64,000 nucleotides of DNA from positions 310,001 to 374,000 of the forward strand of contig CM038998.1 in assembly GCA_017499595.2 (NCBI GenBank). Reading direction: 5' to 3'. The position numbers and the translations under genes are program-made. Shown one piece after another: positions 856-35,367 of this stretch; the stretch's first letter is position 1, and every line of letters starts with the position of its first letter. This DNA is from Psilocybe cubensis (Eukaryota). Under the pieces are notes generated by a model. That model saw only the letters and a list, made by a program, of their open reading frames with translations. It searched no databases and was not told the origin of the DNA.

Positions 856-3800
856 ATGGAATTTGTCGAAATCATCTTCCAACTCGCTCCTGTACCCTAT
901 TTAGACTTCAGCTTTACCGTTTTCAAGGGACTGTGGGATGCCCTGAAAGATGTTCAGTCCAGCAAGCAGCAATTCAACGTCCTAGCGCAGTCAGTAGCAC
1001 AATTGTTGCATATACTGGACAAAGGGTTTCGATCTGGAAGTATAATGATGGACGATCTATCGTCAGATGCTCTCATCGACTTGGAAAGGTGAGCGCAGCA
1101 TGTCTTCTTGGAACAAAACAAAATGCACTGAACGACGCAGATTGCTCAAGGACATATCCGCGTACATACAAAAGCAGTCAAATTTTGGATTCGTCAAATT
1201 GCTTCTCTTAAAGGAGGAAAGACTAGCGACTATAGAGGCGTTTAATCGACGTATCTATAACAACATCAACGCATTTCAGGTAGGTGCTATGAAAGCACTG
1301 GACACCTGGGTGTTAACATTACCGCTAGGTTGCCGCAATGATTGATATTCGAGTGTGGCAAACACGAAATGAAGAAGCTCGAAGGAACGATCAGGGAAGC
1401 CTACATGCCCGACTCCGCCATCTGGAAGCCAATCAACGACTCCTGATAGAAGCGCTAGGTCTGTACTTCTACCCATGTTGAATAGCACCGACTCACCGAA
1501 CCGATAGATATTCCTCACAGTGGCCCTCAGGCAATCATGGCTACTCTTCGCAGACGTGTTGATGAAAGGAAAGGATCTGACGAAGAATTAAGATTCCTGA
1601 AGCACAGTCTTAGTTATCTGAGCACTACAAGCAATCACCAAATCGACCTTCAACCCTGGACTATTACTTCCTACGACGTCGAATTTGGACCTCTCATTGG
1701 CGTTGGAGGATTGTACGTACAGATTCGTTTCTTCTGATGATGTGCGCTTACATTTGTCTAGCGGAAGGGTATACCGAGGGAAATGGAATCACACAGATGT
1801 GGCTTTGAAGGTGATGCGGAATGCTGGGGATATATCTCCTAGGGCATCCGTAAGCCTGGTGTTAACTTCTTTGTACTATGTCATAACCTCTTGAAATTAT
1901 AGGCCGTCCGTCGTGAAGTTGAGGAAGGTCGCCCCCTTTTATTCACGAGCCATTGACCAACTACTTGTTATACAGACATGGTCGAAGCTACGCCACCCTA
2001 ATATTCTTCGTAAGTCTGATTTTCGAATGTGAACTTCCCTGCTCAATGTTTGTTAGAATTCTTGGGGGCCAATATCCTCGATGATGAACCATTTCTCGTA
2101 ATGCCATTAGTAGAAGGAGGGAATGCTCGAGACTACATTGATAATCACCCTCATTGTAATAGGATCAAGATTGTGGGTATCCGATTACACTCTTTTTGTA
2201 CGTTTCTCACTTTGGTAGAAATCAGGTTCAGCAAATAAGTCTGGGATTGACCTACCTTCATTCACAATCTGTAGTTCACGGAGATCTCAAGGCTGTGAAT
2301 GTCCTCATAGACGACGCAGAGAGGGCATTGCTATGTGATTTTGGATTAGCGAGGTTGAGAGCTGATGTCAACAGCCGGACAGCAGACTCGATTCCTCTGC
2401 AAGGAAGTCAAAATTGGATGGCTCCTGAGTTATTTGAAGGTCGATCCCTACGTATGCCATGCGACATCTACTCCTTTGGCATGACATTGTACGAGGTGAG
2501 CTTCAAAATCGTCCTCGCATACGCCACGTCCTCAGGAACCAATGTCGCAGATATACACGGGTGAAATTCCCTTCGGACACTTATCTCCTCAGCTTATCCC
2601 TAAACTTGTAGCAAAGCGAAGAATTCGTCCAGAGAGACCAGAACATGAAGAGGCACCATACCTAAGCGACGATATTTGGAATGTTGCTCAGCATTGCTGG
2701 TCTCATAGCCCAGCAGACAGACCTTTGGCCATCACTCTTAGCGAAACCCTGACTGTACTTCTCCATACAACTCGAAATCGACCTCAGGTTTCGGTACCCC
2801 ATCCCCAAGACAAAGTTCTTGAACATACTGGAAACATCGTTATGACAAACGGGACTTATTCCACTAGCAACAATGGATACACATCACTCGTATCCCCTCT
2901 GACGACGTTATACAGTATCCCTGATTCCCCTTTTGGAACCAACCAAATAATCCCCGATACTCCTCCTCGGTCCATGCATGGTCTTCCGCAACGCCTCAAT
3001 GACGACTACGAGGCCATCCATGAACACCCTCCCCCTGCATTTCCTGTACCTAATGTCCATCAAAACCCTCCTCCTGCCTTTCCGACACCTGGTCTTCCCA
3101 ATTCACAGGGCACATATGAAACCATGTTTAGGTTTGAAAGTTTCGCCCTGTCGCTTCCTCCGGTCGAAAGAATAAAGATAATCCCAAACAAAAGACTTGT
3201 CCTAGCTTTCGACATTGGAATCTCATACAGCAGCATTTCCTACAGGTGTGTCTTCTACCTGCCGCTGTTAGGAACTTTAGTGACCGCAAAATATGCCAGC
3301 ATCATTGAAGATAATCAAATGTCAGAAATTAAGGGCGTGACGATGTAAGCTCATCTTCAAGTTACTAATTGTTGGGCCCCACTGAAACGAACCAGAATCT
3401 CTGATCGCGACCAATTGAGTGGATCTTTCAAGGTCCCAACAACAATCTATTATGATGAGTTTGGAGAGTTACGCGCTATCGGAGCAGAAACGATGTCTGA
3501 AGAGGTTATCAAAGTTGCCGAATCCAACGGTTGGAGAAAGGTTAAATGGTACGTGGGGCACGTTGTGCCACTGTTGCGCCTGCTAAAATGTTAACCATGC
3601 TATTGTATGGCTTCATAATCAACTACCAGGTTCAAGCTACATCTATGGCCACATATCATCCCTGGCAAGAAACACACAAACACAACCCTACCCTCTAACA
3701 AACGACCTGAGGATATTCTTAGCGATTACCTCCAATATCTATATCGCTGCTCTATCACATATATCAAGAAAACGCATATTAATTGGCAGGAGCTATCTCC

Positions 3801-4972
3801 TCTATTCAGCTCTAGGGATGATATCGATTTTGTTCTGACCTATCCGAACGGATGGGATGGGGTTCAGGAGAAGATGACACAGTCTGCTGTATTGGCTGGA
3901 CTTGTTTCTGACGATGAAGCTGGCAGATCCCATCTGTCCTTTGTAACTGAGGGAGAGGCTAACCTATCCTTCGTCTTAGGTCATAGTGCACAGGACACGT
4001 TCCAAAATGTGTGTATATTGCCTTCTATAACTTTGATATGTCGATCATTGACAATTGAATAGGATGTGGCTGTTATTGTCGACGCAGGGGATTACATGGT
4101 CACCATAAGCTCCTACGTCAGAAATCCTTCTAATGTTACGCCTTCGTTTGAAGAAATCACTCAACCTCTGCGTAAGTATGCTATCCCGCCTTCCTCCAAA
4201 GCACCAAGTTGTACTTGTGATACTTATGACATTGCCAAAGGTCACCTCAGTGGCTCGATATTTGTGACCTCTCTAGCCAAAACATTCTTCCAACGTTCGT
4301 CTATATGCTTTTCTACAAAGTTCACTATGGCAAATAAACAAAGGCACATACGTTTCTAGGCACACTCTCGGATTCTAAATTCAAGGATCGAGCGGATATT
4401 GTCCTTCAATCATTCGAACGAACAACAAAATTCAGATTTAGCAATCCTGGAGAACCTGAATACCTTACCATAGGCGGAGCGAAAGATAACGATAAAAAAA
4501 GACACATCAAACGCGGCCAGCTAAGGTTGCAAGGGTAAAATTCTCGTCCTTTCTAAATGTGATGTCTGTTTGCTTACTTCTCACAGCGCTGACGTCGCGT
4601 CATTTTTCGAGCCTTCGATCAAATGTATTGTAGATTCGGTGAAGGAGCAGCGAAAAACGTCCCGCGAAAAAGCTACGGTACGTCCTCCTTATGCACCCCT
4701 GAATCGCCATGATCTTTCTGATGCATGTTCTTTAGCACGTAATTCTTGTTGGAGAGTTAAGTGCTAGCGAATGGCTTTTCTCCCGCGTCACCGCCGCATT
4801 CTCACCATTGGGATATTCTGTGATAAGGCCCGACTATTATATGTAATTCATTCTTATCATTCTATTGATCTCTTTATCCGCTGACCTGATTCTTCCACTA
4901 AACAGCAACAGATCTGTTGCGGACGGTGCTATTTTCCACTACTTCGAGAACAGAAAGCATCGTCAAATATAA
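856..4972 (+). CDS. Multi-exon fusion protein: MLKL-like N-terminal helical bundle + TKL-type protein kinase + Pro-rich linker + degenerate Hsp70 (HSPA12-like) nucleotide-binding domain
   Basis: N-terminus MEFVEIIFQLAPVPYLDFSF...LLKDISAYIQKQSNFGFVKLLLLKEERLATIEAFNRRI...FQ resembles basidiomycete MLKL_NTD domains. Kinase motifs are IGVGGFGRVY, VALK, HGDLKAVN, DFG, WMAPE and DIYSFG. ORF 2542-3348 runs without a stop from the kinase C-lobe to RLVLAFDIGISYSSISY. Later exons give KVPTTIYYD, FKLHL, FVTEGEA, IVDAG and VADGA. Stop TAA at 4970-4972. Confidence 0.85.
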
Positions 4973-7836: not shown

Positions 7837-9139
7837 CTAATTATCACCCATTATCTTACCCTTCTTCCCAACTTTTTTGAAAACCCGATGTACCAGTCCT
7901 TTGCTCTTCCCTCGAACTGTGCCTGAAGATGTAGACATGTTCTGAATTTCAGTAGAGGTACGGGAATGTGGGTTATCCCCTTGCTGAGTATCCAATTCTT
8001 CAGATGAGGCATCCCGATTGGGACCGGGGCCCAGGACGGTAGGTGGGTTAAGATCCTCTTGTGAAAAACTGGAAGGGGCATCAGCACACATAGTATTATT
8101 CTGCAGCATAATGGAAGGGGAGCTAGGCATGTTCGCTGCTGTCAACAAATTTGGTGCCGATGAAGTCGAGGCTCCTCCGTGGATGGCCCCAATCACCGTT
8201 GTTGAGGTGGCTGTCTGACTGAAGTCACCATATATTCTCCCTGAATGCTGGTTGTTTGTAAAAGATGTGTTGTGTTGTCCACCCTCAAGGCTGTCCACAA
8301 CAAGTTCCATACTGAACTCGTCTGAAGCTTCCGGAGCAGGCATTCCTGGAGAAGGATAACGTATTGCGCGTTCTTGTGATATTCGAAGCAGCGATTCATC
8401 GCTGAAAGCTGGGGATGTGTCGTTCTTCCACTTAGGTGAGTGAGAACCTGACAAAACTAATTAAATTATATATTGTAATCAGGATGTGAATTTACCTTTT
8501 CCATTTGTAAACTCGGTGCCCATCCCAATATCCGATGGGCGTTGTGCTGTTGACGGTGGTCGTAATGCTCCAGAAGATCCACTGGTCACAGTATGCGATG
8601 GTATGGGACTCCTTGGTATCCTAAAGCTTTCATTTGTTTGTGGGCGTAGACCTCCATCTTAGTAGATCAATTAACAATAGATAATGATAAAGATTGCGAT
8701 TTTACTTACCTCTCGGGGGCACACCCTGTGATGGCGAGCTTGACTGTGATCCTGAAGAATAATCATATAGATCACCACCAATAGCTTGAAAATTTCCATT
8801 GGTTATCTTGAAGTTGCTTGCGCCTTCAAAATATTTTACCGACGACGATTGTATCGGTCTTGTACCAGGCCTTTGTGGCATAGGGCTTGGTGGCAAGCCC
8901 GACGAAGGTGGTGACCTGATATAGTAGGCATTTCCACTGACTGCAGAGAAATCCCCTCCATTGATCTCAAACCCGGTACTGTTTGTGAAATACTCCACTC
9001 CACTCTGATTTCCCTGGGTCCTGGATCTGTTGTTGTAATACAAATCTTCTGTGACGGATTCTTCGTCAGAGGAGAAGTCATCATCCTCATCCTCGTCTTG
9101 GTGAAAATGTAGATCATTTCGATTGGTCCGATGGTGCAT
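7837..9139 (-). CDS. Low-complexity protein with two motif-A putative amyloid signalling motifs (3 exons)
   Basis: Starts MHHRTNRN. YFTNSTGFEINGGDFSAVSGNAYY at ~8921-8992 and YFEGASNFKITNGNFQAIGGDLYDY at ~8759-8833. Two phase-1 GT-AG introns join it in frame to ORF 7837-8454. No globular domain is recognisable. Confidence 0.75.
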
Positions 9140-9977
9140 AGCGCGCACGTCGAGGAGGGTTGTAAAAGCTTTCAGCTGATGATGGTGGTGGTGAAAGGGA
9201 ATTTGACGCCCAGTGGCAAGGTGACATGCTGCCTGTCCCACGGTTCTTGGATTTGACTCATTCTTAATTTACGACATGGCTATGAAGGGTCGATCCCTGT
9301 AAATAAAACAAGGCAACCACAGCCTCACGAACCAATGTGACTTCCAAAATTTGGCATCAACTTGTATTAGGCATAACTCGTTGTGATTAAAGGCTGTTCT
9401 GATGCAATTCAGTTTGTGCTTACCAAAACGGACGGAATAGGATGAATGCAATTTTGAGTGGCTCGTTAGGTAGTAGGCACCCTTCTCAGGACCGTTCGGC
9501 TACAATAAATGTGTCCTCGCTATTGACTTGGACATTGAATTGAAGGAACGGATGCCAGCTGCTACATTTTACTCTATGGATTAGGGCTCAGAAAGCTACT
9601 ATCCGCGGGCACCCGGCGACAAAAGGAAGAGAGCCTTTTGGTCATACTGCAGTTGCGGGTTCTTCCTCGGTGGGGTTGATGTGTAACTTGTTGAATTGCA
9701 CCGTGTAATAGTCGATAGTGGTGGTGGCTATGCATTTGATCAACAACATATTTCTTTCGGGATGAGCAGGGATAGAGATTGTGACACACTTACGGGACAT
9801 GCGATAATCTTTCTGTCCCGAATCATTATCGGGACAGAATGGAACGGGTACCGGCAGAGCTGGAGTACGTTTGTGAAGTTGAGTTTTTGTGGGATTCGAA
9901 CTGGAGGGAGAAAATGCTTGTCTACTCCCTGCTTCTCCACATTTCCTGTCTATTGAATACGACAGATATATCAGTTC

Positions 9978-10409
9978 CTACTCAATATTGTAACGCGCTT
10001 TGAGGGCTTTACGTTTTCGTGACCTTTGGTGGCTAGTATTTGCAGAGCTTACTTCTCCCTGACACGGAGAGTGAGACCCTAGATTTGGATCGACATCGAT
10101 AACGTCGTAGTGGTCACCATGAATATACGAAAATATTCCATCCTTTATTTGAAAATGAGAAAGGTTTTTGAAGCGAGAGGTATTGGTGTGGGATGTCTTT
10201 CGCTTGTTTCTTCGCCTGCTAACATCTCTATCTGATGGATGACATTGATAAAAGTTTCCTCCAATAGATGAGAAGTACCCCCCATCGATCACAAAGTTTG
10301 TGGCCCCAGTGAAATTCTCGACCCCTGGGCGGCGAGGAGGCAAGCCTGGAGGAGATTCGTCATTCGCGCCCCGGGTTCCGTGGTATCCAACATCACCTAT
10401 TGTTGTCAT
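9978..10409 (-). CDS. Small protein with two motif-A putative amyloid signalling motifs (3' end uncertain, may splice on toward ~9600)
   Basis: Starts MTTIGDVG. NFTGATNFVIDGGYFSSIGGNFYQ at ~10245-10316 and RFKNLSHFQIKDGIFSYIHGDHYDV at ~10101-10175. Candidate splice donors lie near the 3' end of the ORF. Confidence 0.65.
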   Translation of the reverse strand: MTTIGDVGYHGTRGANDESPPGLPPRRPGVENFTGATNFVIDGGYFSSIGGNFYQCHPSDRDVSRRRNKRKTSHTNTSRFKNLSHFQIKDGIFSYIHGDHYDVIDVDPNLGSHSPCQGEVSSANTSHQRSRKRKALKARYNIE

Positions 10410-10897: not shown

Positions 10898-12739
10898 TTA
10901 TGTTAACTGCCACCTACCAGATTTTCGCTTCTGTTTGGAAGTAACATTCCCAGAGTTAGTTATGTTGATGTTTGCAATGTTTCCGCTATTAATGTTGTGA
11001 ACCGAAATAGGAGTATTCCCAGATGGTATTGTCTGATGGCTCGCATTGGGCATGGATTGGTGAATATACGAACTTGGGTACAGAGGATGTGAATAAGATT
11101 GAACCGACGGAGAATGAGGTGCATACTGTAATGCTGAGAAGGTGGAGCCATACTGATAACCTGCTTGCCAGGGACCGATTGAACCCGGATATCCCAGAAT
11201 GGTCTGTGCGAATTGGTTACTGACATTGTCGACGGCCGGAGAATGGGCTTTTGGCGAGGTCGTTTTGGGAAGCTCGGATTTCGGTGGCTTTTGCGATTGT
11301 TTCTTTGGAACAGGAATGTCTGGCTCCGTCTCGTACTCTGAGCTATCTCCACTTCCCACCTCAGAGCTCCCTTCACTAATATCTAGTGATCCCATTTTCT
11401 GCATAAGTTCCTCAATTCTCCGACGCTCCTTTTTGTATCGTCGTTCTAGTTCCCTCTTTCTCTTCGTCTCGCTGTTTATTGCATCCTGGATTCTCCTTGC
11501 CTCTTGTTTTGCTTGCAGTTCGGCTTCTATCTCCAACCGACATTGGAGTTCAATTTTTGCGCGCTCCTCCGCTCTGATTCGCTCCAGAGCCTCTCTTTCC
11601 TCGAGTTGCTGACGGGATCGCTCTTGCTGACGCTCGCGCAAGGCACTCTCTTCATCATCCCTTCTTCGCCTAAGGTCGTCTGCCACTTGAATTCTTAATA
11701 TTGAGTTCTGCGCGTCCAGCTCCTCGATTCGTCGTTGCTGGGAAATAATCTCTTCCTCCGCTGCAGCTTGCTGCCTTCTACGATTGTCTTCCTCTTCTTG
11801 CAATCTTCTAACCTCTTGATGAAGTCGTGCCTCGCGCTCTTGCGCATCTATGCGTTGGTGAACTTCCTCGATGTCATGCCGTGCCTTCAGAAGTTCTGCT
11901 TGTCTCCGTGCCTCCTCTTCCTTCATTTGATTTTGCAATATCAAGCTTAGTGCATCATGAAGGCTCAGGTGAGAGGATACCTAGAAAAGTTTCTGACAGT
12001 TAATTGAAACTCGGATATACAATATTCGTAATGTACCTCGAACATATCTATGGCCGTTTTCAATCGTTGTCGGAACTCCTCTATCTTTCCGGCATCTGCG
12101 GCACTGTAGACCAGCCTTGTCACCTTTCCCCGCCTGAGCTGCTTGTTGATAGCAGCTTGTATGTCTGCCAGTGTTCTTTGAAATCTTATCAAATCCGGAG
12201 TATAACAGTATGAAACAAGAACGCGTACCTTACAAAGTCGTCAATCACAGCTTTGATATCCTGTGGAGGCCAATTGTCTTTGTTAGGTGAGCGCTGGTAG
12301 GCAGAGTATACTGTTGTGATGAACTCCATCGCTTCTTGACCAAGTCTTTCGAAAGCGATTTTGTTCTCTTTCACTGTCTGTCAAGTAAGGTGTCAATGTG
12401 GAGAACATGATGAAAACTATTAAAAATACTGACTTGAATGATCTCAACGATTTTGAGCGTAGCACCCGCAGCCTGCTTTAGGTAAGGAATCGGAGCCAAA
12501 GATGATGCTTCCTTGACGATGTTCAGTAGTACAGATCCTCCATTAAGCGTTGTGTCGATCCAATTGTGTTCTTCCCCAGTTTCTGGGCCCATTGGTACCT
12601 TCGATGTTGACGAAGCCGCAAATTGCAAGGTAGTAAACATGCCACCGCCCGTGTCAATGCCTTTTCCAGGCTTGACCTTGCCTTTTCCTTTGTTATTCAT
12701 AGACGAATCATGGGTATCGACAGTGCTGAGGGCGTTCAT
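10898..12739 (-). CDS. MLKL-like N-terminal domain + long coiled coil + C-terminal motif-B putative amyloid motif (4 exons)
   Basis: Spliced sequence LLNIVKEASSLAPIPYLKQAAGATLKIVEIIQ|TVKENKIAFERL...|RTLADIQAAINKQLRRGKVTRLVYSAADAGKIEEFRQRLKTAIDMFE|V is typical of basidiomycete MLKL_NTD. An E/R/Q-rich coiled coil of ~190 aa follows. The C-terminus has NINSGNIANINITNSGNVTS at 10937-10996. Confidence 0.82.
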
Positions 12740-13285: not shown

Positions 13286-15059
13286 TTAGGGCCGTAGCTC
13301 ACGTCCTAGTTTTCGCCGAGCTAGAGTTATCCAAAGAAGTATTATTTCATGCAGCTAAAAAATTCAAACAAAAGCACCTACTTTGAATCGTGGTCTCCCT
13401 GATGGAATAATCATTATTCGAATCCTTGATCAGCGTGTTGGTGGTATTCCCAGAGCCCACATTGAGTATTCGTGAAGACCTGTCCACGTATTCGTAGTTG
13501 CCGTACACGACATTCACATTGGGACTTCCGTTGATGGTAGCCCCGCCAAAATCAAAGGCAGCTTTAGCAGAAAGTGTATTGCCTTTGTAGTATCCTCGGG
13601 ATCGAGCGGAGGTAACGCGTTGAGCCCCATTTTGGTGATCGTGAATTGAAGAAGAAGAGGGACGAAGGGAAGACGCGTTTGGACTAGGAACGCCTGCATC
13701 GACAGACTGTCTTGATTGTGAGGGGATATCCTGACTACGGAACCCAGCAGAAGGGGTAAATGTTTGAGAAACGTTGTCATAATGGCGAAGTACTGTTGGA
13801 TGTGCAGGAAAGCCAGGGTTCGCACCAGAATATGGTGGGAAGACGCCCTCGTTGAGCGATAATTTCGCAACGCCGTTTGGAAGATCTGCCATTCGAACGT
13901 CCTCGTCGCCAGTACCCGGTGATTCTGCGTCAACATATTCATCTTCTTCCTCATCCTCGGAACCGACCACACCCCCTTCAGCCATCTCTTCTTCCGCAGG
14001 CGCCGTAATGTCTTCGGAAGACTGAGATTGACTATCGGAATCGGAATCGGAATTAAATTGCGATGTTTGTTGCTTGACCATTGCCATGAGTTGATCCAGG
14101 GTTTGCATCATCATCGGGTCCACGATTGGTTGGATGTCATGAGGCTGGTACTGGGCACTGGAAACTGAATGACCGTGTGTTCCATTCATACTGACATTTG
14201 ATTGACTGGCAAGAGATTCTCTGACTTGAGAATGAACCATCTGTCGGATAGCTTTAGCAGTCTTTCTTTGAACACCGCGGGCAGGCGTATCCGCAGAGTG
14301 ATCGACTGAGTGTGATCGTTCGTCAGCGTTGCTTTCGTCGTCTTGAAGAATGCGTATACATTCAGCAGAAGCCCTCTTAAGGATATAGCAACGTACCTTC
14401 AAAAGCCTTTATCTGGGACCTTGATGCTTTTGCGAGTCGATGGGCACGGGGTGGGGATCCTGATACGAAAAATTAGTGGAGCTGCAATATAGGTGAGTGG
14501 CGACAAGTACCATAACGTTCTGAGTTGTCGTTATTGGAGTTTCGTATCCGTTGGTTTTTTACGTTATACGAATCCACGTTAGAGATATCGAGACGACCGT
14601 TCGAAGACGCCAGTTCAACCTGTTGGGCATGGAGCATTGGATGCATCATCGGGGGCGGAAAGTACGATGCCACTTCAGCATCTTCATCTTCCTCTAGAGT
14701 TGAGAACTGGCGTCAAATCGAGTCACCGATTTCATTGTGAGCAGAACATACGTGGAACATCATCCACCTGTGGTGCACTGCGACCTTGATCATTCCTATG
14801 TTTGGACTTTCGGTTTCGACCGTCTAAACGAGGTCGATCAGCACCTTGGAACAAAGTACACAATAATCGATTACCGACATGACACAAAAGAGTTGTCGTT
14901 GTGAGAGTTCAAAGTTGCGGTGTTGTTCGAATTGAAGGAGTTGATGTTGGAGACTTTGCGACTTTGGTCGATAACGGTGTAATTGCCCTTCACATTGTTG
15001 AAGGTTCCTCCAGTGATAACGACGTTCTTCGCACCGCTGAAGAAGGTAGCGCCCGACAT
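13286..15059 (-). CDS. Domain-less protein with multiple putative amyloid motifs (A+B, B, A-like+B); 6 exons
   Basis: ORFs 14871-15059, 14473-14673 and 13347-14402 join in frame through five phase-1 GT-AG introns. N-terminus MSGATFFSGAKNVVITGGTFNNVKGNYTVIDQSRKVSNINSFNSNNTATLNSHNDNS; ends ...TRRKLGRELRP*. Confidence 0.75.
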
Positions 15060-29688: not shown

Positions 29689-29871
29689 TGTCATGATATG
29701 ACCACACACGTGATCCCGCGCTGTTATCCTCCTTCGTAGATACAGTATATCCTTTAGCTTTGACCACTTCGTTATTAGGTATGTACTACTGGTACATACT
29801 CCATTCTTTATATAACTTCGTTATTAGGTTACCTTTCGTGCTGCATTGCAGACCACAGTGAGAACCTTACA
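29689..29871 (+). repeat. 5' LTR (183 bp)
   Basis: tgtcatgatatg...gagaaccttaca; identical to 35522-35704 on base-by-base reading. Confidence 0.97.
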
Positions 29872-29959
29872 CTTGGTCAAAGCTCTTATACGTTCAACCC
29901 GTTTCCTTCCGGAGAAATTTTTTTTTTCGGCATTTGCGCCTTTGGGGCTTCTTTCCAGC

Positions 29960-31114
29960 ATGCCGGATGGGAATTCCACTACGATAGGAGAGGGCGAGCA
30001 TCCGCCGCCACCCCCCACGATCACCAATCCTATTGCGCAGGAGGTTTATACGGCCTTGGAGGTGTTGCTTGCACCCAGGTTGTCCGAGTTGGAGCGAGGC
30101 CTGGAGGAGGCGGCAGAGGGTTTTTCTCGTCTAGAGGTGCAGAACCAGGAACTCCGCGCTGCGTTGGCGGCAACCGAGCAACGACTTGATGCCGTGAGCG
30201 CCGCTCGTGCTCGTCCCTCTCGGATGCCGAAAGTTAATCCTGCCACGGTGTTTGATGGGACAAGCAAACAGAAAGCGGAGGAGTGGGTTCAGCAGATATC
30301 GGTTAACCGCCACTTTGAGGAGTTTTCCAATGATGCGCAGTGTATTCTATGGGCGCAGTCTTATCTATCTGGGCAGGCATACTCGTGGTCGGCAGTCATT
30401 ACACTCGGCGACGCAGAGGGTGGAAATTCCGAACTCCGTGAAAATTGGGATGCATATCTGGCAGCATTCAAGGCCACATTCTGCTCTCGTGACTCGGCAC
30501 GCGATGCTACACAGCGCCTCTTGGGCTTCAAGCAGGGCCAGAAATCCGATACCCAGTACATTACTGAGTTCCGCGAGTTGGTTGCTCGGTTGCCAGTAGC
30601 AGATAGGACTGGGACATTTGTGGATGCGTGTTTCTGGGCTGGTTTGTCTTTACAAACCAAGCAGCTTCTGGCTCACTCAGACTTCAAGGGGGCAGAGGAA
30701 GCCCAGGCAATTCTTTTGCGTCGCGAAACACGACATGCAGACATTGCAGCAGAACTACGACGTCACGCTCCTCACCCACACCGCAGTCCTGCAGTGCCTA
30801 CACCTGCTATTGCACGGTCAGCTTTACCTTCAGGAACTCATGCTGTTCAACCCCGCCCTGCTCAGGCATCCCTTCCTCCTGCTCCACGTGATCCTAATGC
30901 TATGGATGTTGATGCGGCCCGGCACTTACCTCGGAAATGCTATCGATGTGGAGAGAGTGGTCATGTTCGTGCCAACTGTCCATCTACTGTTGCTCGGCTG
31001 CGGGCAGGGCTTTTAGAGGAGGTCACAAAGGTGCTTGAAGCACATGGATTGGGAACAGTTTCCTCCGAGCCACCCATAGCGGAACCTGCAGCCCCCGAGC
31101 CGGGTTTTGTGTAG
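29960..31114 (+). CDS. gag: Retrotransposon Gag
   Basis: MPDGNSTT...FDGTSKQKAEEW...FKQG...YITEF, then DPNAMDVD and the CCHC zinc knuckle CYRCGESGHVRANC. Confidence 0.95.
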   Translation: MPDGNSTTIGEGEHPPPPPTITNPIAQEVYTALEVLLAPRLSELERGLEEAAEGFSRLEVQNQELRAALAATEQRLDAVSAARARPSRMPKVNPATVFDGTSKQKAEEWVQQISVNRHFEEFSNDAQCILWAQSYLSGQAYSWSAVITLGDAEGGNSELRENWDAYLAAFKATFCSRDSARDATQRLLGFKQGQKSDTQYITEFRELVARLPVADRTGTFVDACFWAGLSLQTKQLLAHSDFKGAEEAQAILLRRETRHADIAAELRRHAPHPHRSPAVPTPAIARSALPSGTHAVQPRPAQASLPPAPRDPNAMDVDAARHLPRKCYRCGESGHVRANCPSTVARLRAGLLEEVTKVLEAHGLGTVSSEPPIAEPAAPEPGFV

Positions 31115-31116
31115 GG

Positions 31117-34100
31117 TTGCCTTGCCTTGTCGCTGCAAGTGCAACCCAGAACAGGTTTTCTGTACTTACGCCTCCAAATAAATTGGTTTTGACTGGTCCA
31201 AATCAGACTGTGCCTCGCCGCCGTCGTTGTCGGACCCGCCGTGCAGCTGTGATTCATGCTCGTTCTCCTCGATCACAGTTTTCTTCCTTTGAAATTCCAA
31301 TTACTATTCATGTACACAAAACCGCGACACCCAATGTGCCTACCATTATTGATACTAGGGCAATGCTAGATTCGGGCGCTAGCTGCTGTTTCATTAATCC
31401 ACGTTTTGTGGAGCAACATGGCCTAATTTCAATCCCAAAGAAGAGGAGCCTCCGTTTGCGCACAATTGACAACTCTGAAATCAAGTCGGGTCTTATCACT
31501 CATGAAGTCCACCTCAAGGTTTTCATCGACTCACATTCGGAATTGCTAGTATGCGATGTTACTGATATTGGGGATGACAACCTTATATTTGGGATTAACT
31601 GGCTACGGCGACACAATCCGGTGGTAGATTTTGACCGCTCTACCTTGGATTTTACTTCGGAATACTGCAGGCAGAGGTGCTTACCTTTGCCGGAGGCCAT
31701 AACTGCTGCAGCTGCTTCACCTTCACCTGGAAGGCTGCGTAAGCGACTGCTAGAAAGGCAACGCCGCCGTGCACGCCAGCACGCACGGGAGGCGAGACGT
31801 ACTGGGTTGGAAGTTGAGGCTGATGATGTGGAGAGGTTGAAGCTGTTACATCCAGTCCGGCAAAAACCAGGCCGTAAGACACCTCACACGCATAGCCAGT
31901 GCCGCCAAACCAACACATGTGGCGCTACGGGCCGACTTCGCATTCGGAGGGAATCTCTGCACTTTTTAAAATGTTCGCGTGCAAGTTGGACACAGATGAC
32001 ACGTGACCTACAGGCAGATGCACTTCGTGTTGCACATGCAGAGATTGCAAAAGCTTTGGAGCATGCAGTGCAACAAGAAGAGGCAGGTGGGGTGGTTGAG
32101 GGTGTGTCCTTGGAACAGTGCTGGGATGGAGAATCACACCGTGGATGCCAGGGGCCAGGTATTCGTGCTGCCGCCAGTCATTCAGTATCACAGCGCCTGG
32201 CAGAGGCTGCAACTCCTGCAAAAGCTACTGGCTCAGTTGAAGATTTAGTGCCTGCAGAGTTTCACGAATTTTTGGATGTCTTTGATAAGGGTCGGTCCGA
32301 ACGGCTTCCGGCCCATAAGCCCCATGATTTGGCGATTGAGTTAGAGGGCAATGTGCCACCTCCTGTTGGCAAGCTATACCAGATGTCAGCAGCAGAGCTT
32401 CGGGCACTGAAGGAATTCATTGATGACAACCTCAAGAAGGGTTATATACGGCCCTCCAAGGCCCCGTGTGGAGCTCCTGTTTTCTTTGTCAAAAAGAAGG
32501 ACGGATCTCTCCGTCTTGTGGTGGATTTTCGTGCACTCAATGCCATCACGCGGCCCGATGCATACCCAATTCCTCTCTCCGCTGAACTCCTAGACCGTCT
32601 CAAGGCAGCAAAGGTTTTCACTACCTTAGACATGCGATGGGGTTACTACAATGTGCGCATACGGGAAGGTGATGAATGGAAGACTTCTTTCCGGACCCGT
32701 TATGGCCAATTTGAATTTTTGGTTATGCAGTTTGGTCTTCGCAATGCTCCGGCTGCCTTTCAGCGCATGGTTAATGATCTATTCCATGACCTTGTCGACA
32801 TTAATGTGGTACTCTACCTGGACGACATTATTATCTTCTCTCAAGACCCTTCAAAACACGACGAACAGGTTAAGGAAGTCTTGCGTCGCCTTCGGAAAGC
32901 AGATCTGTTTCTGAAACCAGAGAAGTGTCAGTTCCGCACGACAGAAGTGGATTATTTGGGATTTCGTATCTCACCTGGTTGTGTTGGCATGGACCCAGTC
33001 AAGGTCAGCGGGGTAACGGATTGGCCAGTGCCACGCAATGTTCGGCATGTTAGTCGCTTCCTTGGCTTCTGTAACTTCTATCGCCGCTTTATTGCAGACT
33101 ATGCCAACATTACCCGCCCACTGGAGAATTTGAAGCGGAAAGACATGGCTTGGAGGTGGGGTGATGTGGAGCAAGCGGCGTTTGCACAGTTGAAGCAAGC
33201 ATTTATACAAGCACCAGTATTGATGCTGCCGGAAATGGAGGCGCCATTCCATGTTGAGACGGATGCATCAGATTTTGCTGTAGGAGCCATCCTGTCGCAG
33301 AAGGATGCAGCTGGTGATTGGCGCCCCGTGGCTTACTTTTCAAAGGCTATGCAACCCGCAGAGCGCAACTATGATGTTCACGACAAGGAGTTGTTAGCTG
33401 TTGTGCGTGCTCTTGAAGTCTGGCGACCATACCTGGAGGGCAACCCCTTCTGTATTGATATATTTTCTGATCATCGCAACCTGGAGTTCTTCATGACAGC
33501 TCGTGATTTGAATCGCAGACAGGCGCGGTGGAGCCTTTTTTTGAACCGTTTTGTCTTCAAGATCCACCACCGGCCTGGCCGTTTGAGTGCAGGTCCAGAC
33601 GAGTTGTCTCGTCGTGCTGACCACATCCACGGGATGGCCCGTGACAATGCTGCTATGGAGATCTTGCCAGCAGAGAGGCTGGGGCAGGATTCCAATGATG
33701 GTGGTGGTGGTACGGTGTTGGGAAAGCGAGGTGTGGTGCTGGAGCTGCGTTGTTGTGGTATGTCCAAGGTGGTGGCTAGGGTGGGGCAAGTTATACGTGC
33801 CGACAAGGAGATTATGGACAGGATACGTACAGTGTCTCGTAAGGACCCCAAGTTGGATCTCATGTGGGATTTACCTAACGCTCCCGGCCTTGTTCAACGT
33901 CGGCTGAAGGACTTTGTGGTGGATGATGGCGTGGTGCGGTTTCGTGGGCTGGTGTATGTGCCCAATGACGAGGAATTGAAGCGTTGGATTTTGCAGCTGT
34001 ATCACGATGCGATCCCGGCAGGCCACCCTGGTATCTCAAACACGCTGGAGCTGGTGTCACGGAACTACTATTGGCCAAGGATGTCAGAATTTGTTGCTCG

Positions 34101-35367
34101 GTATGTTGATGGATGTGATACTTGCCAACGCACCAAGCCCCGTCGACAGAAACCCTATGGAAAGCTACAACCCCTTGAGGTGCCTGCAGGTCCTTGGCAG
34201 CACATTTCCACCGATTACATTGGGCCGCTGCCACCATCGCAGGGATACGACGCGGTTCAGGTGGTCTGTGACAAGTCAACAAAGCGTGCCCACTTCCTTC
34301 CGGCACACACCACCGATGGTGCAGTAGAAATGTGTGACACCTTCATAGACCGGGTATGGTCTTTGCATGGGACTCCCAAGAAGATTGTGTCGGACATGGG
34401 GCCACAATTTATTGCGAAATACACAAAACGTTTGTGGGAACGTTTGGGTATTAAGCGCGCGATGTCATCCGCTAATCACCCACAAACCGATGGTCAGACA
34501 GAGAGGGTTAATCAGGAATTGGAAATTTACCTGCGCGCGTACGTCGACTACTACCAGGACGACTGGGTGCAGTGGCTTCCCTTTGCAGAGTTTGCCTACA
34601 ACAACAGACACCATACAGCAATAGGGATGTCCCCATTTTTTGCTGAATACGGCTATAACCCATCGTTTTCCGTGGATCCTGTGAATTCGCAATCAGTTCC
34701 ACGCGCCGACGAGAGGCTGGAGCGCATCCACAGGGTGCAGGGCGAGCTGCAGGCAATTCTGACACTCACCGCGGAGAGGATGAAGAAATTTCACGATGAT
34801 TGGGTGGATGAGGCACCCGACTACATCCCTGGTGATCGTGTCTTCTTGGAACGCTCTGACCTGCGCTCATCGCGCCCTAACAATAAATTGGATTTTCGTC
34901 GTTTTGGGCCTTTCCGTATTGCACAGAAAGTCTCCGATTCTGCATATCGATTGGAGTTGCCTGCTGGTTGGGCCATTCACGATGTTTTCCATGTCTCGTG
35001 CTTGATCCCAGCTCGTACGGACACCATTCTGGGCAGACGACAGTTGCCGCCGCCGCCTGTGTTAATGCCCGGCGGCGAAGAGCGTGAAATTGAGCGCATA
35101 CTGAGGGAGCGGCGGACGAGGGGTGGTGTTGTGGAGTTTTTGGTGAAGTGGCTTGGGTTTGACGAGAGCGAAAACGAGTGGATTCCAGAGTACGGCATGC
35201 AAAATGCACGCAGATTGGTGGCAAAGTTTCGTCGGGAGGAAGCTACGAGGGGTAAGGTCAAGATTTCGCGCAAACAGGGAGTCTCACGACGGGTGAACAC
35301 AGAGGGAGGGGCTGTGGAAGGGGTGTTGCAAGGACGTCGTCGAGGGCGTCCTAGGACAGTTGGCTGA
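31117..35367 (+). CDS. pol: Retrotransposon Pol (protease, RT, RNase H, integrase, chromodomain), probably translated by -1 frameshift from gag
   Basis: Protease LDSGAS, RT YLDD, RNase H ETDAS...DKELLA, integrase H...GHPG...CDTC and SDMG/QTDGQTER, chromodomain EIERIL...FLVKWLGFDESENEWIP. Uninterrupted 1416-codon ORF. Confidence 0.97.
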   Translation: MPCLVAASATQNRFSVLTPPNKLVLTGPNQTVPRRRRCRTRRAAVIHARSPRSQFSSFEIPITIHVHKTATPNVPTIIDTRAMLDSGASCCFINPRFVEQHGLISIPKKRSLRLRTIDNSEIKSGLITHEVHLKVFIDSHSELLVCDVTDIGDDNLIFGINWLRRHNPVVDFDRSTLDFTSEYCRQRCLPLPEAITAAAASPSPGRLRKRLLERQRRRARQHAREARRTGLEVEADDVERLKLLHPVRQKPGRKTPHTHSQCRQTNTCGATGRLRIRRESLHFLKCSRASWTQMTRDLQADALRVAHAEIAKALEHAVQQEEAGGVVEGVSLEQCWDGESHRGCQGPGIRAAASHSVSQRLAEAATPAKATGSVEDLVPAEFHEFLDVFDKGRSERLPAHKPHDLAIELEGNVPPPVGKLYQMSAAELRALKEFIDDNLKKGYIRPSKAPCGAPVFFVKKKDGSLRLVVDFRALNAITRPDAYPIPLSAELLDRLKAAKVFTTLDMRWGYYNVRIREGDEWKTSFRTRYGQFEFLVMQFGLRNAPAAFQRMVNDLFHDLVDINVVLYLDDIIIFSQDPSKHDEQVKEVLRRLRKADLFLKPEKCQFRTTEVDYLGFRISPGCVGMDPVKVSGVTDWPVPRNVRHVSRFLGFCNFYRRFIADYANITRPLENLKRKDMAWRWGDVEQAAFAQLKQAFIQAPVLMLPEMEAPFHVETDASDFAVGAILSQKDAAGDWRPVAYFSKAMQPAERNYDVHDKELLAVVRALEVWRPYLEGNPFCIDIFSDHRNLEFFMTARDLNRRQARWSLFLNRFVFKIHHRPGRLSAGPDELSRRADHIHGMARDNAAMEILPAERLGQDSNDGGGGTVLGKRGVVLELRCCGMSKVVARVGQVIRADKEIMDRIRTVSRKDPKLDLMWDLPNAPGLVQRRLKDFVVDDGVVRFRGLVYVPNDEELKRWILQLYHDAIPAGHPGISNTLELVSRNYYWPRMSEFVARYVDGCDTCQRTKPRRQKPYGKLQPLEVPAGPWQHISTDYIGPLPPSQGYDAVQVVCDKSTKRAHFLPAHTTDGAVEMCDTFIDRVWSLHGTPKKIVSDMGPQFIAKYTKRLWERLGIKRAMSSANHPQTDGQTERVNQELEIYLRAYVDYYQDDWVQWLPFAEFAYNNRHHTAIGMSPFFAEYGYNPSFSVDPVNSQSVPRADERLERIHRVQGELQAILTLTAERMKKFHDDWVDEAPDYIPGDRVFLERSDLRSSRPNNKLDFRRFGPFRIAQKVSDSAYRLELPAGWAIHDVFHVSCLIPARTDTILGRRQLPPPPVLMPGGEEREIERILRERRTRGGVVEFLVKWLGFDESENEWIPEYGMQNARRLVAKFRREEATRGKVKISRKQGVSRRVNTEGGAVEGVLQGRRRGRPRTVG

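Follow-up and report, generated by a model that had tools for sequence, protein, structure and literature searches.

A conserved family of Agaricales proteins with three amyloid-like units, encoded in Psilocybe cubensis beside a gene with a related C-terminal motif

What might a protein do that has no recognisable domain and three short amyloid-like units, and whose gene lies directly upstream of another gene whose product ends in a motif related to those units? This question is raised by a stretch of 64,000 nt of the Psilocybe cubensis genome (assembly GCA_017499595.2, contig CM038998.1, positions 310,001 to 374,000 of the forward strand; hereafter the window), in which the gene in question, the target gene, runs from 15059 to 13286 on the minus strand. 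A first-pass annotation of the window had suggested that its product carries two amyloid motifs, A and B, and could receive an A-type fold and template a B-type fold onto a neighbouring MLKL-like protein. The best explanation of our data is that the target is one of a family of cytosolic proteins conserved in Agaricales, mostly disordered and with the three units as their functional parts. With a probability of roughly 40% we propose that it acts as a polymerising relay or amplifier in amyloid-type signalling to the neighbour, a reading in which we infer amyloid formation, the direction of signalling, the trigger and the role of the neighbour in cell death.

The structure of the gene was read from contigs of two public sequencing runs of one study, X1 and X2, whose RNA nature is a guess; their contigs are confined to gene bodies, and those of runs X3 and X4 show no gaps at the five introns of the target gene and cover intergenic DNA too. 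The gene model is as follows:

15059..13286, minus strand: coding sequence of the target gene, six exons, 497 amino acids, from spliced contigs of runs X1 and X2 and in-frame translation
14879-15059, 14752-14823, 14511-14693, 14397-14459, 13382-14341 and 13286-13320, minus strand: its six exons
14824-14878, 14694-14751, 14460-14510, 14342-14396 and 13321-13381, minus strand: its five introns, absent from the X1 and X2 contigs

All five introns have CT..AC ends on the forward strand, that is GT..AG on the minus strand, and in X1 all five joints have a depth of 53.3, which is the depth of one 1905-nt contig, so that the six exons form a single transcript, as had been supposed. Joined, they give an open frame of 1494 nt and 497 amino acids, with the same start (15059), stop (13286) and number of exons as had been read from the letters of the DNA. 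The gene corresponds to the NCBI entry hypothetical protein JR316_0000078 [Psilocybe cubensis], to which exon 5 is 100% identical. The NCBI model (P0001, 499 amino acids) departs from the spliced model solely near exon 2 (window 14752-14878), where it takes another frame or other boundaries than the spliced contigs and yields a stretch unlike the relatives of the protein; judged by its translation, the RNA-supported exon 2 suits the family better, since there, as in the relatives, the first motif B is followed by a Tyr and Gly/Arg-rich stretch. The N-terminal unit described below is almost exactly exon 1, and the central unit is encoded in exon 3. Exon 5 differs between the X1 contig and the window at 14 of 960 nt (window 13582-14029) and exists in two contig versions (haplotypes) in X3 at 13676-13793, so strains or nuclei differ in the disordered middle of the protein; the last exon of the neighbouring gene has one difference in 851 nt between X1 contig and window.

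The motifs were located with hidden Markov models (HMMs) trained on relatives from other species only (25 of them for the A-HMM), which were run against 1,349 six-frame open reading frames (ORFs) of the window and one outside protein. In the target they fall into three units (i-E, independent E-value):

14967..15047, minus strand: residues 5-31, motif A with the beginning of the linker, which open the N-terminal unit; A-HMM E 6e-15, HMM positions 1-27
14889..14951, minus strand: motif B of the N-terminal unit, residues 37-57; B-HMM E 6.5e-7; unit HMM positions 1-53, i-E 5.9e-25
14518..14661, minus strand: central unit in exon 3, a Pro-rich lead and then a lone motif B (14521-14586); B-HMM E 1.6e-8
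13401..13520, minus strand: C-terminal unit, second half of A, linker and B (13401-13466); unit HMM positions 15-53, i-E 1.5e-10; B-HMM E 9e-10

Unrelated ORFs of the window begin at E 0.16 with the B-HMM and at E 1.5 with the A-HMM. The N-terminal unit comprises 53 residues, namely motif A, a fixed linker and a motif B that lies three codons before the end of exon 1, and the C-terminal unit is followed by a short basic tail that reaches the stop. The layout of the first-pass annotation (A and B at the N-terminus, a lone B in exon 3 and a repeat of the arrangement at the C-terminus) is real and conserved when judged by HMMs from other species. Its description of the C-terminus as an A-like part followed by B has to be narrowed: B is there, and the HMM of the whole N-terminal unit aligns with its positions 15-53 in the target and with positions from 9-23 to 53 in nine relatives, which shows that the A-like part truly copies the second half of A and the linker, not the whole of A; no match of the A-only HMM reaches this part. 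As the alignments read, the second half of A, the linker and B are duplicated as one block.

These units define a family. An exhaustive phmmer search with 60 residues of exon 1 as query, against 1.84 billion representatives, returned 36 proteins at E<=0.001, eight of them at E<=1e-10, and 35 of the 36 are fungal. The named relatives, annotated as hypothetical throughout, come from the Agaricales Psilocybe cyanescens, Pholiota molesta, P. conissans, Flammula alnicola, Crassisporium funariophilum, Agrocybe pediades and A. chaxingu. In 32 of the 36 the match starts no later than query residue 6 and ends no earlier than residue 55, and so takes in A and B together; of the 35 fungal matches, 23 have the unit starting at residue 1-3 of their predicted protein. 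The N-terminal unit, the central B and the C-terminal unit follow each other in identical order in all nine full-length relatives (368-1376 amino acids). Compared pairwise, seven full-length proteins are on average 54% identical in the N-terminal unit, 38% in the central and 44% in the C-terminal one, and 21% outside the units. In the full-length relatives the N-terminal unit is gapped in one of its 56 columns; D31 and S33 of the linker are nearly invariant, and G25 is invariant and followed by N or D in most rows of the alignment. The central block is kept in 8/8 aligned relatives; also conserved are the Pro-rich lead of the central unit, an 'LSLN' block, a short helix and the basic C-terminal tail. 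No nucleoside triphosphatase domain was found in the five full-length relatives scanned against Pfam (P0042, P0006, P0023, P0009 and P0018). A scan of JGI metagenome contigs, with an alignment of seven close rows as query, added nine further loci, six of them with all three B copies and the other three cut by contig ends. One of the 36 phmmer matches, P0019, was set aside as unrelated, its sequence reading as a bacterial-type repeat surface protein.

In two models from Flammula alnicola and one from Pholiota molesta, a domain of about 260 residues that we call X is fused directly upstream of the A+B unit (P0006 residues 1-300, P0023 residues 1-250 and P0042 residues about 495-790); the model from Pholiota molesta has 1376 amino acids and two copies of the family. 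These X domains are homologues of one another (E 1e-28) and have no match in Pfam or the PDB; their nearest named clusters in the ESM Atlas are gasdermin families, at 0.82 and 0.79, below the bar. These fusions may be errors of the gene models or real proteins that join an effector to the motifs. Domain X occurs neither in the window nor in loci L001-L009.

How are A and B related to each other? The matches that span both, the near absence of gaps across them and the block duplication all speak against two separable motifs, which is how they had been presented. Because A and B stand at a fixed spacing and were duplicated as a block, we read A+B as one composite folding unit of approximately two rungs, not as two independent folds. 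The units are rich in Asn, Ser, Thr and Gly and prone to beta-strands. The first-pass annotation had offered, as its second option, a two-layer beta-solenoid like that of the two pseudo-repeats of HET-s. The part of this option that stands is the single folding unit, which fits better than a conversion between two folds; the pseudo-repeats do not stand, since the A-HMM and the B-HMM have no cross-matches to each other's regions, and A and B are therefore not pseudo-repeats of one another, unlike those of HET-s, which leaves the analogy only partial. In the test for membership of the HET-s/HRAM family, two similar 21-residue pseudo-repeats were not found and P0001 had no Pfam match at E<=1; Pfam includes a HET-s prion-domain model. 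A predicted complex of four copies of the N-terminal unit, run with the alignment unused and without controls, scored 0.01.

Outside the units the protein is mostly disordered, as had been thought. It has no Pfam family at E<=1 and its model finds no solved fold above Z 3.2 in a fold search, so that the label domain-less is apt. In the AlphaFold2 model, made with an alignment of eight family members, the predicted local distance difference test (pLDDT) is below 50 at 332 of 499 residues, in agreement with a disordered remainder; the strands are confined to the three units, with pLDDT means over blocks of 10 residues of up to 78, and one helix is placed at 244-264.

The neighbouring gene lies directly downstream on the same strand, with 547 bp between the stop of the target and its own start:

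10898..12739, minus strand: neighbouring gene, 558 amino acids, RNA-supported model from X1 and X2 contig joints; NCBI JR316_0000077
12378-12433, 12176-12228 and 11981-12036, minus strand: its introns
10946..10999, minus strand: motif B', 19 residues rich in Asn, Ser, Gly and Ile at the C-terminal end of the neighbouring protein, followed by a basic tail

AlphaFold2 gives the neighbour a disordered Lys/Gly-rich lead, five low-confidence helices within residues 60-199 (pLDDT 50-60, from an alignment of two sequences), a coiled coil at 210-397 with pLDDT >90 and then a disordered Pro/Tyr-rich tail. B' ends 12-15 residues from the stop in P. cubensis (P0004), in P. cyanescens (P0005) and in a gene on the metagenome contig L003, and the P. 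cubensis and P. cyanescens orthologues agree at 15 of its 19 residues, in a tail that has diverged on both sides of it. With the B-HMM, the C-termini of both orthologues rank next after the three copies of the target (E 0.024 in P. cubensis and 0.019 in P. cyanescens; HMM positions 2/3-20). A profile comparison of the family with the neighbour by hhalign gives a single match, of the central unit (Pro-rich lead and B) to residues 502-550 of the neighbour, over 45 columns with 31% identity, E 0.0036 and a probability of 9%. Taken together, these figures make the resemblance of B and B' real in position and pattern and statistically modest, and the motif that the neighbour had been said to have in common with the target is found as a related, conserved motif at its C-terminus. 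A basic tail follows the terminal motif in both proteins. We also observed, within the coding sequence of the neighbour, an optional in-frame intron of 54 nt (11073-11126, minus strand, GT..AG), skipped in one X1 contig and retained in an X2 contig; skipping it would shorten the Pro/Tyr-rich tail by 18 residues, which directly precede the part similar to the central unit of the family.

Is the pairing of the two genes seen elsewhere? In P. cyanescens an N-terminal fragment of the family (P0012), the orthologue of the neighbour (P0005) and a C-terminal fragment of the family (P0003) each lie on a 55,055-bp contig, with the locus tags 003300, 003303 and 003312, all within 12 of each other; P0012 and P0003 may be one broken gene or two genes. 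On contig L003 a coiled-coil gene that ends in B' lies on the same strand as the family gene and 2.4 kb downstream of it. Its C-terminus matches the last 60 residues of the neighbour in tblastn (E 4e-6 and 4e-5) and in BLASTP (E 2.8e-6), the latter in the C-terminal exon only; its N-terminal exons have no significant BLASTP match to P0004 or P0005, and its exons give nothing above noise against Pfam. A close homologue of this gene, cut by the contig end, is present on L001. Four contigs extend 3 kb or more beyond the family gene on its downstream side; a partner is present in one, probably present in one and not present in two, which are one sequence. The linkage of the two genes, then, is found in at least three genomes or contigs (P. 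cubensis, P. cyanescens and L003).

Two further observations concern these contigs. Between the family gene and the B' gene lies a second helical or coiled-coil gene (L003 10364-11713, plus strand; L001 6411-7136, plus strand), with an exon pattern that by eye is like that of the N-terminal domain of the neighbour and with no terminal B-like motif. On L002 an ORF at 1228-1632 (plus strand), about 6.6 kb upstream of the family gene, holds a B-like Asn/Ser stretch within Arg/Ser-rich sequence and may be a motif-bearing gene.

Which function is compatible with this arrangement? Amyloid templating of HeLo and MLKL-like executioners by NOD-like receptors (NLRs) is established in ascomycetes. In the known fungal systems, a short amyloid motif at the N-terminus of an NLR recurs at the C-terminus of an executioner encoded nearby, and oligomerisation of the NLR templates the motif of the executioner (PMC9815663). 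The target has a unit at the position typical of a sensor, the N-terminus, and another at the position typical of an effector, the C-terminus with its tail, has disorder between them, and has a central unit like the tail of the neighbour; a relay or amplifier is the most economical reading of this combination. In such a relay, a seed would convert one unit of the target, and the multivalent protein, once seeded, would stack its units into a cross-beta polymer. Its B modules, the central one above all, would then template B' at the C-terminus of the neighbour, which, with its helical bundle and coiled coil, would be the executioner. The trigger could possibly be NLRs with A-type N-termini, as described for Agaricomycetes (PMC9815663).

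Several observations weigh against a relay. No NLR was found among the ten largest non-transposon ORFs scanned in the 64-kb window, and a word-index search for longer proteins that share the N-terminal unit gave, among 44 candidates, the target itself only. The near-identical contigs L007 and L008 have no B'-bearing or similar gene within 4-6 kb downstream of the family gene, so the linkage is not universal. The likeness of B and B' amounts to about 11 bits, or an E of about 0.02 in 1,350 sequences, with the low hhalign probability already given, and both motifs are Asn-rich. The neighbour itself has no Pfam family at E<=1, no PDB sequence match and no fold specific for HeLo or MLKL: Foldseek finds generic helices only (best E 1.0), and VIA-align finds generic bundles, the best of them a designed bundle at Z 8.9, with the CC domain of a plant resistosome at Z 7.8 among many ties. 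Its label as MLKL-like has a single language-model lead behind it, an ESM Atlas feature search in which seven of 30 matches belong to a set with a listed cluster that scores 0.93 and in which 36% of members have PF22215 MLKL_N; the top matches are unnamed basidiomycete clusters at 0.94. The label is nonetheless plausible, since hundreds of stand-alone MLKL-like proteins are reported from Basidiomycota (PMC9815663).

Much of this evidence also bears on whether amyloid signalling is involved at all. The units could serve a disordered scaffold of some other function, as low-complexity, beta-prone segments or as conserved short linear motifs, and their likeness to B' could come from a shared Asn-rich composition; the weak statistics of B against B', a neighbour with no recognised death domain, the lack of an NLR nearby and the missing partner gene on L007 and L008 would all fit. 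Against this, B' is an island kept between orthologues whose flanks have diverged, it recurs at the very C-terminus of a linked gene on an unrelated contig, and the likeness takes in the Pro-rich lead in the hhalign match and the basic tail that follows the motif in both proteins. We consider a non-amyloid scaffold unlikely. A different division of labour, in which A and B would be two amyloid folds and the target a strict converter that takes in an A-type template from NLRs or from neighbouring proteins with A only and gives out a B-type template to the effector, is the one first proposed for this locus, and it draws on two more genes of the cluster:

9642..10409, minus strand: small expressed gene, 212 amino acids, three exons, spliced contigs; no Pfam family
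7837..9139, minus strand: expressed gene with a spliced X1 contig; no Pfam family

The former has one clear motif A (10251-10313, i-E 1.2e-3) and a weak second one (i-E 13), the latter two copies of motif A (8930-8989 and 8768-8830, i-E 3.5e-4 and 1.7e-4; whole-ORF E 1.2e-8), and neither has a motif B; all four motif genes of the cluster have spliced contigs in one and the same run. Motif A without B in two expressed neighbouring genes, motif B without A at the centre of the protein and at the end of the effector, and two HMMs that find different sequences speak for a converter. Within the family, however, A never occurs apart from B, the linker has a fixed length with its two nearly invariant residues and the single gapped column, and the duplicated block crosses the border of A and B (HMM positions 15-53), which points to one folding unit; no A-bearing NLR came from the word-index search. 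On balance a strict converter seems to us quite improbable.

The other alternatives accept amyloid-type units and change what the target does with them. It could be a brake or decoy that buffers or caps signalling by co-aggregating with upstream seeds or with B' of the effector, in the manner of the motif-only inhibitors of animal RHIM or cRHIM amyloids. Motif sharing and linkage are the same for a brake as for a relay, several copies of the motif with no output domain would suit it, and contigs of the target occur in the same run as those of the effector; relay and brake are not separable from sequence alone. The complete unit at the N-terminus mirrors the sensor side of the known systems, not an inhibitor, and we hold a brake to be decidedly unlikely. 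A pair of the HET-s/HET-S kind, in which the target would be a self-propagating prion whose state decides whether the effector fires, for instance in self/non-self recognition between strains, would explain why a protein with nothing other than prion-forming-like units is encoded beside an effector with a matching tail and why strains differ in the middle of the gene (at 14 of 960 nt in the X1 contig, and by two haplotypes in X3). Yet both genes are present in one genome and covered in the same run, and the variation lies in the disordered region rather than in the motifs; such a pair appears very improbable. We retain the relay or amplifier as our working proposal.

In its boldest form this proposal would make the family the missing link of basidiomycete amyloid immunity: a domain-less, multi-unit adaptor that collects A-type seeds from NLRs, templates itself and fires pore-forming executioners through B, in some species maybe fused or adjacent to a second executioner domain (the X of Flammula and Pholiota). 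Fungal NLR signalling would thereby gain its first motif-only adaptor; we offer this as a doubtful, speculative extension. Agaricomycete NLRs have N-terminal amyloid-like motifs, dozens per genome (PMC9815663), and effector-side partners were 'seemingly less frequent' and never found beside NLRs (PMC9815663); the family could explain this imbalance of many motif-bearing NLRs and few effector partners in basidiomycetes. If a relay is true, it would add an adaptor layer to signalling in fungal innate immunity, as in animal necroptosis. The family also supplies defined short peptides (the N-terminal, central and C-terminal units and B') for fibril and cross-seeding tests. In the literature we found no domain-less multi-motif protein or adaptor for fungal amyloid signalling, in a search that lay outside the supplements of PMC9815663, which may list such proteins.

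The rest of the window holds a probable retrotransposon and ordinary genes:

29828-35367, plus strand: Gag/Pol-like ORFs of 428 and 1442 amino acids, whose translations read as a Ty3/Gypsy-type retrotransposon; G+C 0.50-0.53 against about 0.45
2163-4062, plus strand: match to Pfam Pkinase (E 5e-23), a protein kinase domain; the ORFs that follow it have no family

Other genes of the window encode an aldehyde dehydrogenase, a malic enzyme, two TauD-type dioxygenases, a cohesin-loader-like protein and an F-box-like protein.

How does the locus compare with known systems? Like the fungal NLR/effector systems (HET-S/NWD2 with HRAM; PP, sigma and PUASM; PMC9815663), it has a short motif common to the products of adjacent genes, the motif of the neighbour stands at the extreme C-terminus after a helical domain, and that of the target starts at residues 2-5, the NLR-side position. 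It differs from them in that the target has neither a nucleotide-binding domain nor repeats and bears three units, one of them at its own C-terminus, that no NLR accompanies it among the ten largest non-transposon ORFs of the window, and that its motifs match no Pfam model of these families. Another parallel, within Agaricomycetes, may be the motifs of NLR05/08/22/29/44, which are described as standing at the very N-terminus with a core of about 25 residues, spaced hydrophobics and a G[DN] end (PMC9815663). In a comparison that goes by the wording of that paper only, motif A fits this pattern, hydrophobic residues included, with its place at the very N-terminus and G25 followed by N or D in most rows, and shares with this meta-family its occurrence in Agaricales; it differs in that it is not on an NLR and is always followed by the linker and B.

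With regard to structure, a composite unit of about 50 residues would fit the two rungs of the beta-solenoid of HET-s(218-289), and the effector would then carry a one-rung counterpart; in HET-s, however, pseudo-repeats are joined by a flexible loop, and in the target A and B are not pseudo-repeats and the linker is short, fixed and conserved. Compared with NWD2 and HET-S, the single-rung and double-rung sides would be swapped in the pair of target and neighbour. In animals, the RHIM proteins RIPK1, TRIF and ZBP1 upstream of RIPK3 and MLKL, and Imd in Drosophila, are amyloid or prion-like adaptors, and the core of RHIM and PP motifs is (I/V)-Q-(I/V)-G or G-x-Q-x-G. The likeness would lie in an intermediate protein that relays an aggregation signal, or strengthens it, on the way to an executioner; the difference is that the animal adaptors have kinase, death or TIR domains and a Q-x-G core, and the target family has neither, no Gln-x-Gly core being found in the consensus of its units or of B'. 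The PP-like NLR39 has a core of the form G-hydrophobic-Q-hydrophobic-G (PMC9815663). The principle of shared amyloid-like motifs in clustered genes is known, and what appears to be new is a conserved family made of such units only, in three copies and without an NLR.

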